A stretch of 34,105 bases of DNA, from UHGV virus genome UHGV-0177136; one strand, written 5' to 3'. Positions within the stretch are counted from its first letter, which is position 1; each line of letters opens with the position of its first letter. Below the pieces are notes generated by a model. That model had not been told where the DNA came from and searched no databases. It saw nothing but the letters and a program-made list of their open reading frames with translations. The position numbers were made by a program, and so were the translations under genes. Shown here piece by piece: positions 21,709 through 34,105 of the stretch. This DNA comes from a virus.

Positions 21709-21727
21709 GTGTGTCTCCTCGTTTGGT

Positions 21728-21766
21728 GGAGACAGCATCACAAATGTGGCGGGATACGGATTTTAA
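21728..21766 (-). promoter_or_regulatory. late-promoter-like motif upstream of holin gene: TTAAAATC-N23-CTGTCTCC (minus-strand sense)
   Basis: Minus-sense sequence TTAAAATCCGTATCCCGCCACATTTGTGATGCTGTCTCC; the two 8-mers and their spacing recur upstream of the gpI-like gene. Confidence 0.45.
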
Positions 21767-21822
21767 ACAGCGTTAATAGTGAAGATGTAAACGTGCACTG
21801 CATGATGGCTTTGAAAGAACGA

Positions 21823-21850
21823 CCAGCCCGGTACCCGAACACCGGGCTGG
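21823..21850 (-). terminator. GC-rich hairpin (10-bp stem, 8-nt loop) followed on the minus strand by a T-rich tract; candidate intrinsic terminator/insulator upstream of the late operon
   Basis: CCAGCCCGGT / ACCGGGCTGG perfect inverted repeat; minus-sense downstream sequence TCGTTCTTTC. Confidence 0.4.
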
Positions 21851-21955
21851 CCATCGCCCCACAGGAATGCGCTGTGAGCCGACCAAGGTTCAGTCAGTCT
21901 CGCGCGACCACACTAGCCTGGCATATTTTTTATAATTGTAAAAGGCTTACAGATT

Positions 21956-22726
21956 ATGAAAATGCAGACATTACCCATCGTTCCATGGATTGGTGGCAAA
22001 CGCCGCCTTGCAAAACACATCCTGCCGCTGTTTCCGGCGCATGAATGTTATGTGGAGCCGTTTTGTGGGGCAGCAGCGCTCTATTTTCTTAAGGTACCCG
22101 GCAAGATCGAAGTCATTAATGATATCAACGGTGAGCTGGTGAACCTGTATCGGGTGGTAAAACATCATCTGGAAGAATTTGTACGCCAGTTCAAATGGGC
22201 GCTGGTCAGCCGGCAGATCTACAAATGGCTGCAGATCACCCCGGAAGAAACACTGACGGATATCCAGCGTGCAGCACGGTTCTACTACCTTCAGAAGCAG
22301 GCGTTTGGGGGCAAGGTGGCGGAGCACAGCTTTGGTACCTCCACCATATCCCCGCCACGCTTCAACCTGCTGCGTATTGAAGAAGAACTGTCAGCGGCAC
22401 ACCTGCGGCTTTCCAGAACGGTCATAGAACACATGGACTGGCAACAGTGCATAGAACGATATGATCGCCCGCATACGTTGTTCTACTGTGACCCTCCATA
22501 CTGGGGAACGGAAGGTTATGGTGTGGAGTTCGGACTAGAAAATTATGATCATATGGCAGATTTAGCACGCAGGATCAAAGGGAAGATGATTATATCGGTG
22601 AACGATATCCCGGAAATGCGGCAGGCATTCAACGGTCTAAATATTCAGTCGGTTGATATCAGCTACAACCTCAAGATCACTGGCAAATCCAGTCGCAAGA
22701 AGGAACTCATTATCCTCAACTTTTGA
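21956..22726 (+). CDS. DNA adenine methyltransferase, Dam/D12 family (no adjacent restriction enzyme gene seen)
   Basis: 256 aa; N-terminal WIGGKRRL SAM-binding-type motif and DPPY catalytic motif; TATAAT at 21931..21936 upstream. Confidence 0.85.
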   Translation: MKMQTLPIVPWIGGKRRLAKHILPLFPAHECYVEPFCGAAALYFLKVPGKIEVINDINGELVNLYRVVKHHLEEFVRQFKWALVSRQIYKWLQITPEETLTDIQRAARFYYLQKQAFGGKVAEHSFGTSTISPPRFNLLRIEEELSAAHLRLSRTVIEHMDWQQCIERYDRPHTLFYCDPPYWGTEGYGVEFGLENYDHMADLARRIKGKMIISVNDIPEMRQAFNGLNIQSVDISYNLKITGKSSRKKELIILNF

Positions 22727-23921
22727 CCGAATAGTAAGACTTCATGCAGTGAATCAAGTACTGCATGAAGTCAAGGGCTGGTTTTGTGTACCAAAAATAA
22801 ACAGTGATAGCGGTAATAATTCCCATAACTAGAACACCACGTATAATCCAGAACGTACGTTTCTGCGTGTCTAGTCGCGCAGAAATACTGCTAAATACAC
22901 CAGCCACGTCATCTTTAATGAAGGAATATTCCTTATTAATCTGTTTTTCTTTGTATTCAATTTCTTCGCCTAAGGCCTTTATAGATTGCATCTGGTTCGA
23001 AAGTGCCAGCCAGATTAACGTTGCAGCAAAAATGCATCCCAGAAGAATTATTGTGTTTGTTATCCCTTGGCCTGACCATTTCGTAGCCACTTTGAATTGG
23101 GTAGCTACGATAACAGAGGCAACAGGAATGCCAAGTATATGGTTCTGGATATCTGAAAACGCTTTGTGGATTTTACCCATTTCTTCGACTTTTGCAGCAC
23201 GCAGTTGATCCATTACTTTGTCATAAGAGAATCCAGAAGAGTAGATACGATACCCTTTCAGAAACTTTTCATGCAGACGCTGAATATTGTCCAGTAAATA
23301 AGCGAATACTAGAGGTGAATCAATTCCATCACTAACTGCTTGAATACTTTCAATCAGAATATCTAGCTTCTGATCCTTATGGGTATCATCATTGAAACAA
23401 GCTATAAGGTTATCAAGATACTCCCTTTGCAAATTTTGTACATTTTCTGCAGCGAAGTGCGGTAATAGCTTGATAACTTCTTTTTTCAGAAAAACTAACT
23501 GACAAGTTGAGTTATCAAAGTAGGCCGCGGCCTCTTTTAGCAGATTAACGAACTCGAGAATCTTCCGGTAGTTGCTGATGAAAACGGGGATATCTTCATC
23601 ATCATTACGAAATTTTGTTTCTAGGATGAAGTAATTAGCTGGCTCAAGGCACTGATGCTTTGGAGCATTTAGCAATTTTTCATGGGTGGAAAACACAAGT
23701 CCCAGTCCACTCCGTGGTGACGTCACACGTAGGATGATCGTGTTACCTGGAGCGATAGTGCCTGTATCAATAGAAAGACCATATTCACGAGGATCATCAA
23801 GCAAAGTATCAACCAGATCACAATCGGACTGATCTAAGAGCAACAGCGAACCGACACGAAACCCCTCTTGGAATTCCATACGACGATACAGAGCTGTCAG
23901 CATCTCAAATGAAATCGCCAC
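22716..23921 (-). CDS. protein of unknown function with two C-terminal transmembrane helices; candidate effector of a two-gene module
   Basis: 401 aa; start GTG 23921 two nt after the upstream stop, with GAGG inside the upstream gene end; TM helices at ITNTIILLGCIFAATLIWLAL and FWIIRGVLVMGIITAITVYFWY; N-terminal ~275 aa unrecognised; visibly AT-richer than flanking phage genes. Confidence 0.6.
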   Translation of the reverse strand: MAISFEMLTALYRRMEFQEGFRVGSLLLLDQSDCDLVDTLLDDPREYGLSIDTGTIAPGNTIILRVTSPRSGLGLVFSTHEKLLNAPKHQCLEPANYFILETKFRNDDEDIPVFISNYRKILEFVNLLKEAAAYFDNSTCQLVFLKKEVIKLLPHFAAENVQNLQREYLDNLIACFNDDTHKDQKLDILIESIQAVSDGIDSPLVFAYLLDNIQRLHEKFLKGYRIYSSGFSYDKVMDQLRAAKVEEMGKIHKAFSDIQNHILGIPVASVIVATQFKVATKWSGQGITNTIILLGCIFAATLIWLALSNQMQSIKALGEEIEYKEKQINKEYSFIKDDVAGVFSSISARLDTQKRTFWIIRGVLVMGIITAITVYFWYTKPALDFMQYLIHCMKSYYSVKS

Positions 23922-23923
23922 GA

Positions 23924-24931
23924 TTAAACCTCAGTCATCCACATTTCCCTAAATTCTTCAGGTACATTACGTAGGGTGATAATATTTGTTTCCGGATCAT
24001 AATCAATATAGCCTTCAGTTTTCCCTTCCCGGTCAAACTTAAGTTCCCAATATTTAGACTTGCCTTTAAAAGATACCAGAGCCCGAATGACTCGACCATC
24101 AGGAACGAAGCCATCCGATAACTCCAACTCTTCAGCAGCAAGTTTACCAGATAACTCCTCGGGAGCCTGGGGCCAAATGGCATTAACAAGGGTTTCAAGA
24201 CTAAGTGGTTCACCAGCCTTACTTAGTGCATGTAAGTGTTCAAACGCACTCTTAAGAAATGCATCTTTTTCAGCGCCGTCAAGTCCTTTCTCTGCCGCAA
24301 ATGCTTTTAAAACGTCACGTAACTTTTCAGACTCTCGTTTGGCGATTAAGACATCATTACAGCCTAGGAACTGTTTAAAATAGTTTGAAACATTACCTTG
24401 CCCCTTAAGAAAACTGATATAGCGCTCTGCGCCACTTTCCCACGCGGTTAAGTCAATGCGCCCAGCCATACGCAGCTTAGCAATATCAAGATAGGTACTA
24501 TCTTGGATGTTAAAATCATCTGTGACAGTGGACCCAATGGTAGCGCTTACAATAGCTATCAACAGGTGTTCATTGTGTCCTATCACGATATTTGCAAAAA
24601 GAACATAACCACCAGTAGCCATGTTTTCTCGCTGAGAACGTTCCGTCAGGTGATGCATCATTCGGCAGGAACTTTGGTAGAAATCATCAACACCTTCGAG
24701 AAAGTCCCCAGCCATTCGTTCCATAGGATAGTTATCCGTATCGCCTTCAAAATAGCCATAACCTTTACCTGTGCGTCCTGCATATTTTGCACAAATATCG
24801 TTTATAAGGCGCTGAGAGGCTTCAGTAACTAGACCTTCTTCAGGACTCAATCTCTCAGAAGCGTCTCCATTTTGTTGTTTGTCTAAAATGTGAACTACAA
24901 CGTGTTTAACTTCAATGGTCTGCTCAGACAT
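23924..24931 (-). CDS. NdpA/YejK-like (NA37 family) nucleoid-associated DNA-binding protein homolog
   Basis: 335 aa, the length I recall for E. coli YejK; segments such as GGYVLFANI, YLDIAKLRMAGRIDLTAWESGAERYISFLKG and the C-terminal YIDYDPETNIITL match my recollection of YejK ([54 protein letters not shown]). RBS AAGGTGG upstream. Confidence 0.6.
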   Translation of the reverse strand: MSEQTIEVKHVVVHILDKQQNGDASERLSPEEGLVTEASQRLINDICAKYAGRTGKGYGYFEGDTDNYPMERMAGDFLEGVDDFYQSSCRMMHHLTERSQRENMATGGYVLFANIVIGHNEHLLIAIVSATIGSTVTDDFNIQDSTYLDIAKLRMAGRIDLTAWESGAERYISFLKGQGNVSNYFKQFLGCNDVLIAKRESEKLRDVLKAFAAEKGLDGAEKDAFLKSAFEHLHALSKAGEPLSLETLVNAIWPQAPEELSGKLAAEELELSDGFVPDGRVIRALVSFKGKSKYWELKFDREGKTEGYIDYDPETNIITLRNVPEEFREMWMTEV

Positions 24932-25001
24932 TGGCTATCCACCTTATTTTTTATTGCTTAATGGCAAATAATTTCTGCTATATGTTCTCGTTAGGAACAC
25001 A

Positions 25002-33744: not shown

Positions 33745-34105
33745 AGGGCCGGAACTCCTGGTGGAACTGGCACAGCATACCTCTGAGACCGTTCGCGAGA
33801 TTATTGATATTGAGCCCGCAATTGCCGACCAGATTGGTCAGGCCGTCGCGAACCGCATGATGCAGGTCTGGGGCGGGCAAAACGTTTATTTCCCGATGGG
33901 CATGGTATGGAAGGTCAGTCAGCGCGACCGGGAAATCTTCAGGGAGTTTAACGGACGTAACCACCATGAACTGGCCCGCAAATTTGGTGTTTCGCTTCAG
34001 TGGGTCTACAGCGTGGTTAAGCGGGTAAGAAAAGAAGAACTGGATCGGATGCAGGGCAAGCTATTTGCTGATGAACCCGATGTAGATACGGAGAAAAAAG
34101 AGTAA
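33716..34105 (+). CDS. mor: Mor-like middle transcription activator
   Basis: 129 aa; C-terminal region (REFNGRNHHELARKFGVSLQWVYSVVKRVRK) resembles the Mu Mor/C family; complete, stop at 34103..34105. Confidence 0.75.
   Translation: MSDLNQFRSKGPELLVELAQHTSETVREIIDIEPAIADQIGQAVANRMMQVWGGQNVYFPMGMVWKVSQRDREIFREFNGRNHHELARKFGVSLQWVYSVVKRVRKEELDRMQGKLFADEPDVDTEKKE

Follow-up and report, generated by a model that had tools for sequence, protein, structure and literature searches.

The window, by which we mean the whole stretch of DNA that was analysed (34,105 nucleotides of the virus genome UHGV-0177136), contains a gene for a DNA methyltransferase, hereafter the methylase, which a preliminary description made from the sequence alone had presented as a solitary Dam-family enzyme. 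We investigated this gene together with the conserved region directly upstream of it. Two features are out of the ordinary at this locus: an RNA element upstream of the gene that matches no curated family, and a recognition hairpin in the enzyme that lacks the residues with which Dam reads GATC. The gene and its upstream region are arranged as follows.

21956..22726, plus strand: orphan D12-class (alpha-group) DNA methyltransferase gene, 256 amino acids with an ATG start, assigned from profile matches and motifs
21812..21955, plus strand: conserved structured regulatory region of about 145 nucleotides, 5' leader of the methylase mRNA; the cassette homology block begins at 21812

The product of the gene matches the Pfam family of D12-class N6-adenine methyltransferases (PF02086) over amino acids 11-234 with an E value of 7.3e-28 (98.4 bits against a gathering score of 22), as well as the PADLOC model MTase_II (3.7e-115) and phrog_56, and these profile matches are far above chance. 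The Dam-family model TIGR00571 of NCBIfam is passed marginally, at 116.9 bits for a cutoff of 114.85. The WIGGK and DPPY motifs noticed in the preliminary description were confirmed at amino acids 11-15 and 179-182, respectively. Together with FCGAAA (36-41) and NDIN (55-58), they follow the order that defines the D12 class, in which the motifs binding S-adenosylmethionine (xGGK, FxGxx, and NDxN) are N-terminal and are followed by the recognition hairpin and then by the catalytic DPPY. The open reading frame (ORF) is intact, and strong purifying selection acts on it: the ratio of nonsynonymous to synonymous substitution (dN/dS) is 0.04 to 0.07 (about 0.05), with synonymous sites saturated. By its sequence, the gene thus encodes an ordinary phage orphan methylase of the D12 class that is intact and predicted to be functional. 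Giant proteins of 1000 to 2500 amino acids that contain 2 to 4 copies of the methylase domain were also encountered (P0123, P0135, P0144, P0147, P0156, P0177, P0222, P0236, and P0268); these possibly represent multi-methylase proteins encoded by plasmids or large phages.

The assignment to the Dam family holds for the fold and class of the enzyme but not for GATC specificity. The solved structures closest to the methylase by sequence are those of DpnM (E value of 5e-17), M.CbeI (PDB 7M6B; 6e-15), and EcoDam (1e-14). In Dam structures, the EcoDam residues that contact GATC are K9, N120, L122, R124, and P134. Across the DNA-reading hairpin the alignment of the methylase with EcoDam is ungapped, and N120, L122, R124, and P134 are replaced by G, K, A, and S, while K9 is replaced by P. 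In contrast, the intercalating aromatic residue and the equivalents of R137 and Y138 are retained as F117, R135, and F136. The methylase therefore resembles EcoDam, T4Dam, and DpnM in its class, its motif order, and these three residues and differs from them at the positions that would read GATC. Among 97 diverse members of the family, DPPY, NDIN, and GGK are conserved at 92 to 98%, whereas the positions equivalent to the GATC-contact residues vary; the hairpin signature of the family in this alignment is F-G-G-K/R ... F/Y-G, with a variable tip. Since the GATC-contact residues are not conserved, GATC specificity is not to be assumed, and the target is probably not read in the way that Dam reads GATC.

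M.CbeI is an alpha-class N4-cytosine methylase, and DPPY enzymes of this class can modify cytosine at N4 (PMC8616854). The methylase matches it over the full length and shares with it a similar hairpin, F-[SG]-G-x-V...[FY]-[SG], and a C-terminal ...ELxIxN[FY]. The two enzymes nevertheless have only about 25 to 30% identity, and M.CbeI is the cytosine-methylating component of the CbeI restriction-modification system, which was found in a thermophilic Firmicute. On sequence grounds, both N6-adenine and N4-cytosine may thus be the target of the methylase; a literature search on the specificity of its subfamily yielded nothing usable.

A true GATC-specific Dam would duplicate the host enzyme and keep fast-replicating phage DNA fully methylated, for purposes such as mismatch-repair avoidance, packaging, or phage gene regulation (compare the Dam enzymes of T4, T2, and P1), with no broad anti-restriction effect. 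We consider this alternative unlikely. The methylase does pass the Dam-family cutoff, if marginally, but it is far from the EcoDam equivalog model NF008152, with 69.2 bits against 441. Its RefSeq name is DNA adenine methylase, and the GATC enzymes DpnM and EcoDam are among its closest solved relatives; against this stand the replaced contact residues, which vary across the 97 members, the equally close relationship to an N4-cytosine enzyme, and a control region devoid of GATC sites. Separately, the tetranucleotide CTAG occurs 11 times in the window, compared to about 131 expected from base composition, GATC occurs 85 times (131 expected), and CCGG occurs 294 times (186 expected).

We then turned to the region upstream of the gene, in which the following helices were identified.

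21815-20/21888-93, plus strand: closing helix P0, from RNAalifold
21823-32/21841-50, plus strand: helix P1, a long hairpin, from RNAalifold
21860-64/21872-76, plus strand: helix P2, from RNAalifold
21897-900/21905-08, plus strand: helix P3, a palindromic hairpin, which covaries

Conservation of this leader is far above that of the synonymous sites of the methylase gene, and the leader is still recognizable where the proteins share only 65% identity. In an RNAalifold alignment of 44 sequences, compensatory changes were seen in 17 of 19 base pairs. A covariance model built from this alignment gave 68 hits in 80 related loci, all on the plus strand and with fixed orientation and distance to the start of the methylase gene or of com. 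These hits included 20 loci outside the seed that are of the Com type, in which the element lies directly upstream of com, a gene for a Com-like protein. In the model-based alignment, 87% of the paired cells were complementary, compared to 64% after shuffling and 32 to 43% with slid partners. Both sides had changed in 24 of 25 pairs, and the covariation score of 0.57 (against 0.18) was reached by none of 500 shuffles. The model also found the element upstream of phiE125 gp27 (E value of 2e-23) and of VP882 gp37 (3e-16); it gave no hit in the com/mom region of Mu. Thus, the upstream element is conserved, covarying, and linked to the methylase gene.

The linkage was also seen in a scan of IMG/VR for the P2 hairpin pattern, where 101 of the 118 matches had a methylase start within 140 nucleotides downstream. 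There were 14 exceptions with enough downstream sequence, and 10 of them had no model hit and were chance matches. At two loci, the 79-nucleotide core of P0, P1, and P2 stands alone 72 nucleotides upstream of an ORF for a tail-fibre-like protein of 476 amino acids (L128, 4884-4962, minus strand; L183, 10579-10657, plus strand), which indicates that the core can also occur apart from methylase genes. Locus L184 has a canonical terminator after the core and no methylase. In B3 (L004, 2579-2804), the hypothetical-protein ORFs 45 and 46 lie inside the match to the RNA model (2683-2857) and may be spurious gene calls. No Rfam family matched the window at the gathering threshold or at an E value of up to 10, and none matched 11 related loci at the gathering threshold; a search for tRNA and tmRNA in the window was likewise negative. 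A "D12-methyl" RNA motif upstream of D12 methylase genes is said to have been described; a literature search with this term returned no paper.

An element of this kind might instead act as DNA, either as a set of binding sites for regulators or as the recombination site of a mobile cassette. The cassette does have sharp boundaries and occupies different genome positions in different phages, but its stems stay complementary while their sequences change and their loops vary, and even the long-range helices P0 and P4 covary, a pattern that is not expected of protein-binding sites. We therefore regard a function as DNA as very improbable and continue with the element as an RNA.

The long-range pairing P4 involves the ribosome-binding site of the methylase.

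21872..21880, plus strand: 5' arm of the alternative helix P4, CUGUGAGCC, with 21944-21952 as its pairing partner and an overlap with the 3' arm of P2
21942..21952, plus strand: Shine-Dalgarno sequence AAGG (21942-45) and spacer, with the 3' arm of P4, GGCUUACAG, at 21944-52

The 5' arm CUGUGAGCC, which consists of the 3' arm of P2 and AGCC, is complementary to GGCUUACAG, which covers part of the Shine-Dalgarno sequence and the spacer. P4 is formed in the minimum-free-energy fold of the window sequence (-48.2 kcal/mol, z score of -3.0). In the alignment, 76% of the P4 cells were paired, with many G-U pairs, compared to 19 to 45% with slid partners, and one P4 pair switches between UA (23 sequences) and CG (17 sequences) in step with its partner in P2. 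The duplex between the P2 region and the Shine-Dalgarno region was calculated at -13.8 kcal/mol for cognate and -9.8 kcal/mol for noncognate combinations, a difference that was not found in every clade. As modeled, this is the pattern of a switch in which P2 and P4 would alternate and so hide or expose the ribosome-binding site.

The opposite strand of the element has features of its own.

21812..21908, minus strand: candidate cis-antisense small RNA of about 95 nucleotides (hypothetical), with a 5' hairpin P3', then P2', the long hairpin P1', and UCGUUCUUUC
21915..21942, minus strand: candidate sigma-70-type antisense promoter, with the -35 box TTTACA (reverse complement of 21937-42), a 16-nucleotide spacer, and the -10 box CAGGCT (reverse complement of 21915-20)

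The minus strand folds into three hairpins (-55 kcal/mol), the last of which is a GC-rich stem of 15 bp followed by UCGUUCUUUC, and it is more stable than the plus strand. When P0 and P2 are read on the plus strand, they contain 24 A-C cells compared to 3 G-U cells. In 36 of 48 distinct relatives, the -10 box has the form TAnnnT (TAGGCT in 20 and TAGAAT in 11), with A2 and T6 ranking among the best-conserved positions of the whole element. TTTnCA is found at the 16-nucleotide spacing in the enterobacterial relatives, where the -35 box abuts the Shine-Dalgarno sequence of the methylase. In addition, the Rfam family RF00236 (ctRNA_pGA1), a counter-transcribed RNA of plasmids, gave a full-length match to the element of phiE125 on the minus strand, with 38.4 bits for a gathering score of 45 and an E value of 1.4e-4, and weak minus-strand matches of 29.5 and 27 bits in two further loci (L029 and L030). 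A literature search on "ctRNA_pGA1" returned benchmark papers only. Like RF00236 ctRNAs and the antisense RNAs of type I toxin-antitoxin systems, the candidate RNA would have a 5' hairpin on the minus strand, a long GC-rich hairpin, and a U-rich tail, and it would lie opposite the leader of the regulated gene. It differs from the ctRNAs in that the element has the extra helices P0 and P3, the regulated gene is a phage methylase rather than a replication initiator, and the antisense RNA is a candidate, with matches below the gathering score and none in the window. From these sequence features, the element is best described as a sense leader with a probable cis-antisense RNA.

Several observations weigh against this description of the minus strand. 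When all helices are counted together, G-U and A-C cells are nearly equal (58 and 77), and the strand is not settled by them. The greater stability of the minus strand may reflect its G+U content, the consensus-structure energies being alike on both strands. Consensus scans of the window flagged neither the antisense promoter nor a terminator, and RF00236 was absent from the window at an E value of up to 10. Finally, antisense pairing to 21872-80 could free the ribosome-binding site instead of blocking it, and the sign of the regulation could thus be reversed. A leader acting on the sense strand only, that is, a riboswitch-like or protein-binding three-way junction that toggles between P2 and P4 without any antisense RNA, would be in line with the equal energies and the negative scans, with the fixed orientation and spacing in the 68 loci, and with the covariation and G-U pairs of P4 on the plus strand. 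It would not account for the minus-strand signals, namely, the ctRNA_pGA1 matches, the tail rich in U, the conservation of TAnnnT, and the predominance of A-C cells over G-U cells in P0 and P2, and we hold it to be possible but doubtful. The probable sense and antisense pair is thus preferred.

With regard to the start of the sense transcript, one further sequence is relevant.

21762..21779, no strand assigned: conserved motif TTTAAACAGCGTTAATAG, located between the holin start (21708) and the methylase cassette and present once in the window

Every enterobacterial relative has TTTAAACAGCGTTAATAG conserved upstream of its leader. KP12 (L005), in which cargo separates the holin from the leader, has two copies, one beside each of them. 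It is therefore a candidate for a late-promoter or activator site shared by the holin operon and the methylase leader, and it may be the binding site of the phage's late activator of the Mor family. A TATAAT at 21931-36 was considered as the -10 box of the methylase and dropped because it is not conserved in the relatives.

We next compared the methylase with its relatives in other phages. Its identity is 88 to 92% to the corresponding enzymes of Klebsiella phage KP12 and Escherichia phage PhiKM and 64 to 66%, over the full length, to B3 ORF48, VP882 gp37, and phiE125 gp27. The gene of B3 is overlapped by a Com-like gene. A Com-like ORF of the type C..C...CPRC was found directly upstream of the methylase gene in 23 relatives from 80 IMG/VR loci (65 to 76% identity), or in 24 with B3. 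Moreover, 13 methylase genes end within 33 nucleotides of the end of their contig, the contigs being mostly about 35 to 50 kb in length. To judge by their placement, these genes sit where Mu-like genomes have mom. The genes of phiE125 and VP882 stand at the end of blocks of late genes and in the same orientation as these. The genes of B3, phiE125, and VP882 therefore resemble that of the window in being orphan genes of temperate phages that belong to the same subfamily and have the same RNA element upstream. In contrast, they lie inside late operons (in B3, behind Com), whereas the methylase gene of the window points away from the late operon, is not accompanied by Com, and is convergent with the operon of the repressor and cargo genes. 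The phiE125 gp27 protein is reportedly active when cloned.

The comparison with the com-mom system of Mu rests on several likenesses. Both involve a DNA-modification gene of a transposable phage that is presumed to be expressed late and to be under tight post-transcriptional control, and relatives of the methylase are found in the place of mom and have retained a Com-like gene. Mom differs in being an unrelated enzyme that makes acetamido-adenine, and Mu lacks the RNA element. In the window, a Com regulator was rejected because no Com-like ORF (C..C...C..C) was found within 400 nucleotides upstream, and none was found there in any enterobacterial relative. Likewise, control of the mom type by Dam and OxyR was rejected, as no GATC site occurs in 21709-21955.

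Replacement of mom by a methylase has a precedent. Hia5, Hin1523, and Nme1821 form a Dam-related subfamily that replaces mom in Mu-like prophages and methylates adenine nearly without sequence preference (Drozdz et al., PMC3299994). They share with the methylase the alpha class and a divergent target-recognition region. However, they constitute a separate subfamily, since B3 ORF48 is absent from the 1000 sequences closest to the Hia5-type enzymes (PMC3299994), and their relaxed specificity could be carried over to the methylase family by analogy only. M.EcoGI and M.EcoGII were rejected as relatives, since they are beta-class enzymes.

The preliminary description had suggested three roles for the methylase, namely, protection of phage DNA from host restriction, phage regulation, and a functional tie to the two adjacent genes. 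Of these, protection from restriction has the best support, whereas the tie to the adjacent genes, which is considered below, has none. The relatives at the mom position, often behind a Com-like gene, point to a late, Mom-like anti-restriction role. By analogy with them, protection of progeny DNA against restriction is most likely the role of the methylase.

Alternatively, the gene might be one of lysogenic conversion, expressed in the lysogen and reprogramming host gene expression epigenetically. Orphan methylases can act as epigenetic regulators, and the gene does lie in the repressor region, which carries cargo expressed in the lysogen. However, it opposes the operon of the repressor and cargo genes, its leader can sequester the ribosome-binding site, and other phages carry the cassette within late operons or in the place of mom. 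Moreover, lysogens do not express prophage methylases such as M.EcoGII, which are silent there (PMC5778455). This alternative is therefore improbable in our estimation, and we retain the anti-restriction role.

To place the cassette in its genome, we compared the window with complete bacterial genomes. A prophage of E. coli M-17 matches it with 99.8% identity. In that strain the entire prophage has about 38.5 kb and is inserted between rstA and rstB, while in strain CE0011b the same prophage interrupts emrA; these different sites indicate insertion by transposition at varied sites. The layout matches that of BcepMu-like transposable phages, and the relative PhiKM is classified in Bcepmuvirus. 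The leftward late arm contains genes for a holin, an SLT lysin, terminase, head, tail, tail fibres, and an invertase, and the rightward early arm contains genes for a Ner-like protein, an IclR-like helix-turn-helix protein, a DUF3102 protein, a DDE transposase, an ExeA-type ATPase, Gam, and Mor. The repressor gene (minus strand), the cargo, and the methylase gene sit between these arms. From its sequence, the window is thus a BcepMu-like transposable prophage of E. coli.

The methylase is indeed solitary, as had been proposed. Its gene is flanked by those of the holin and a membrane protein, and no restriction endonuclease is annotated in the prophage of about 38.5 kb or in the chromosomal flanks of the two genomes with different insertion sites. 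These flanks also cover the possibility, raised in the preliminary description, of a cognate restriction enzyme just outside the window. At the right end, the sole sizeable unannotated ORF follows the Mor gene and encodes 210 amino acids (L003, 38651-39283); it starts at about position 33865 of the window and continues beyond its last nucleotide. This end of the genome is one at which variable genes are located in BcepMu-like phages. This ORF was tried as a hidden endonuclease and rejected, as it has no Pfam or PADLOC hit.

The cassette was then compared with its immediate surroundings. The sequence 21812-22726 is present in 565 of 5426 complete E. coli genomes, in 533 of them at a coverage of at least 80%. 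In contrast, the whole stretch including the two adjacent genes is present in only 19 E. coli genomes. One strain, E. coli A24 (H62), has a cassette reduced to its first 190 nucleotides. Comparison of the window with 19 enterobacterial relatives (about 17 of them distinct) showed pairwise homology that falls into blocks: a block with the holin and late promoter ends at 21779-81, the block of leader and methylase runs from 21812 to the 3' end of the methylase gene, and the repressor block resumes at 24982. Two variable slots thereby flank the cassette. Slot A (21780-21811), between holin and leader, is empty in the window and has 1.1 to 1.6 kb in KP12, PhiKM, and others. Slot B (22708-24981), between the methylase gene and the repressor or early genes, has 187 to 3219 bp and at least eight different contents, with the major ORFs on the minus strand, which is that of the repressor; in the 19 relatives this slot is filled with cargo other than that of the window, as it is in the annotated relatives. 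Thus, the methylase cassette is a backbone element of the prophage, and the two genes beside it are variable cargo.

22716..24931, minus strand: variable cargo, made up of a gene for a membrane protein of 401 amino acids (22716..23921) and one for a YejK/NA37-like protein of 335 amino acids (23924..24931)

The cargo has a G+C content of about 40%, compared to about 58% for the phage. Its two proteins match phrog_3767 and phrog_5023 strongly and remain below the equivalog cutoffs of the NCBIfam models DS1_1 and DS1_2, with 63.7 bits against 330 and 75.9 bits against 315. DS systems come from DefensePredictor, and the YejK domain was validated in defence there (PMC13092281). By sequence, the two genes probably constitute a DS-1-like defence moron that is at best a distant relative of DS-1. 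Kiwa was rejected as their identity, given a weak C-terminal KwaA hit of the membrane protein only and no KwaB.

A methylase coupled to such a module could, for example, mark self DNA for the DS-1-like defence system, and the immediate adjacency of the genes, with their overlap of 11 bp, and the resemblance of the module to a validated defence system would fit such a coupling. Yet the module accompanies the cassette in only 19 of 565 genomes, and the same slot holds at least eight other contents, so that the functional tie proposed in the preliminary description is not supported. Furthermore, the methylase gene has a G+C content of about 50% and lies in a backbone homology block, unlike the module. 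The genes are also convergent and hence cannot be one operon. Taken together, we judge a coupling to be extremely unlikely and treat the methylase cassette as an independent unit.

At the junction between the two, the following features were found.

22716..22726, no strand assigned: tail-to-tail overlap of 11 bp between the methylase gene and the gene for the 401-amino-acid protein, sequence TCAACTTTTGA; both genes end with TGA
22738..22772, no strand assigned: perfect inverted repeat of 13 bp (stem of 14 bp when folded), 12 nucleotides past the methylase stop

The overlap with the convergent membrane-protein gene, which had been noticed previously, was verified: both stop codons lie inside it, that of the minus-strand ORF 22716..23921 being 22716-22718, and the RefSeq annotation shows the same overlap. 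Among the 20 enterobacterial loci compared, the overlap of the stops was seen only in the cargo variant of the window. It is thus a by-product of the cargo junction and no conserved feature. The hairpin at 22738-22772 (-26.4 kcal/mol, z score of -4.3) lies within the last 19 or so codons of the 401-amino-acid ORF because that ORF runs into the methylase gene. In 10 of 11 relatives examined, a strong hairpin of unrelated sequence was present 5 to 20 nucleotides past the methylase stop, and several of these were classic bidirectional terminators. The hairpin is therefore likely to be a terminator or 3'-end hairpin of the convergent transcripts. The earlier proposal that the two transcripts must collide or terminate within each other is reasonable in this respect, but it is not special to this pair of genes, as convergence and a hairpin are general at these loci. 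Synthesis of the full 401-amino-acid protein requires a transcript that extends past 22716 and is hence antisense to at least the 3' end of the methylase gene. We conjecture that, for a minus-strand transcript reading through, the next terminator-like structure would be the P1' hairpin near 21812, where a stop would shield the late operon.

The best joint explanation of these results is a Mom-like orphan methylase cassette that is controlled by a structured RNA and belongs to the backbone of the prophage, to which we assign a probability of roughly 0.55. The regulatory RNA region (21812-21955) and the methylase as its payload (21956-22726) would form a unit with the promoter region of the late (lysis) genes on one side and a cargo hot spot by the repressor gene on the other. 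We infer that the enzyme would appear late in the lytic cycle and methylate phage DNA after its replication but ahead of packaging, and that the methylated progeny would escape restriction in the next host, as is the case with Mom of Mu. In the lysogen, where uncontrolled methylation would do harm, the methylase would be silent. Silencing and timing would be post-transcriptional, the 3' arm of P2 with AGCC pairing with the ribosome-binding site as P4. The opposite strand would probably encode the ctRNA-like antisense RNA of about 95 nucleotides, with its own promoter and terminator, and convergent transcription from the operon of the repressor and cargo genes may add to the silencing. This explanation presumes that expression is late, that the methylase counteracts restriction, that the antisense RNA exists, and that the regulation has the direction given. 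On the other side of the balance, the methylase gene is not at a genome end but central, between holin and repressor, and the phage of the window has no Com. Promoter scans showed no convincing plus-strand promoter for the methylase. Moreover, GATC specificity could still apply and would protect little in a Dam+ host.

More tentatively, and with less confidence than in the cassette as such, the element can be viewed as a sense/antisense RNA switch that is widespread and previously undescribed. In such a switch, a three-way-junction leader that toggles the helix hiding the ribosome-binding site would be joined to a ctRNA-like antisense RNA. The methylase gated in this way would stand in for Mom; its recognition hairpin is devoid of the GATC-reading residues of Dam, and its specificity may be relaxed or new. 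B3, phiE125, VP882, BcepMu-like prophages, and hundreds of uncultivated phages would share the switch.

The element stands in front of a methylase gene or com in about 10% of complete E. coli genomes as well as in B3, phiE125, and VP882, and it reaches no curated Rfam threshold. The recognition that a backbone methylase is unconnected to the candidate defence pair beside it prevents the two from being misread as one system. An enzyme family with a recognition hairpin unlike that of Dam is also a candidate source of new methylation specificities, which would be relevant to the host range of phages and to phage therapy against restriction-rich hosts. The element itself would offer a tractable model for how a temperate phage silences a potentially genome-wide DNA modifier in the lysogen and releases it in lytic growth.

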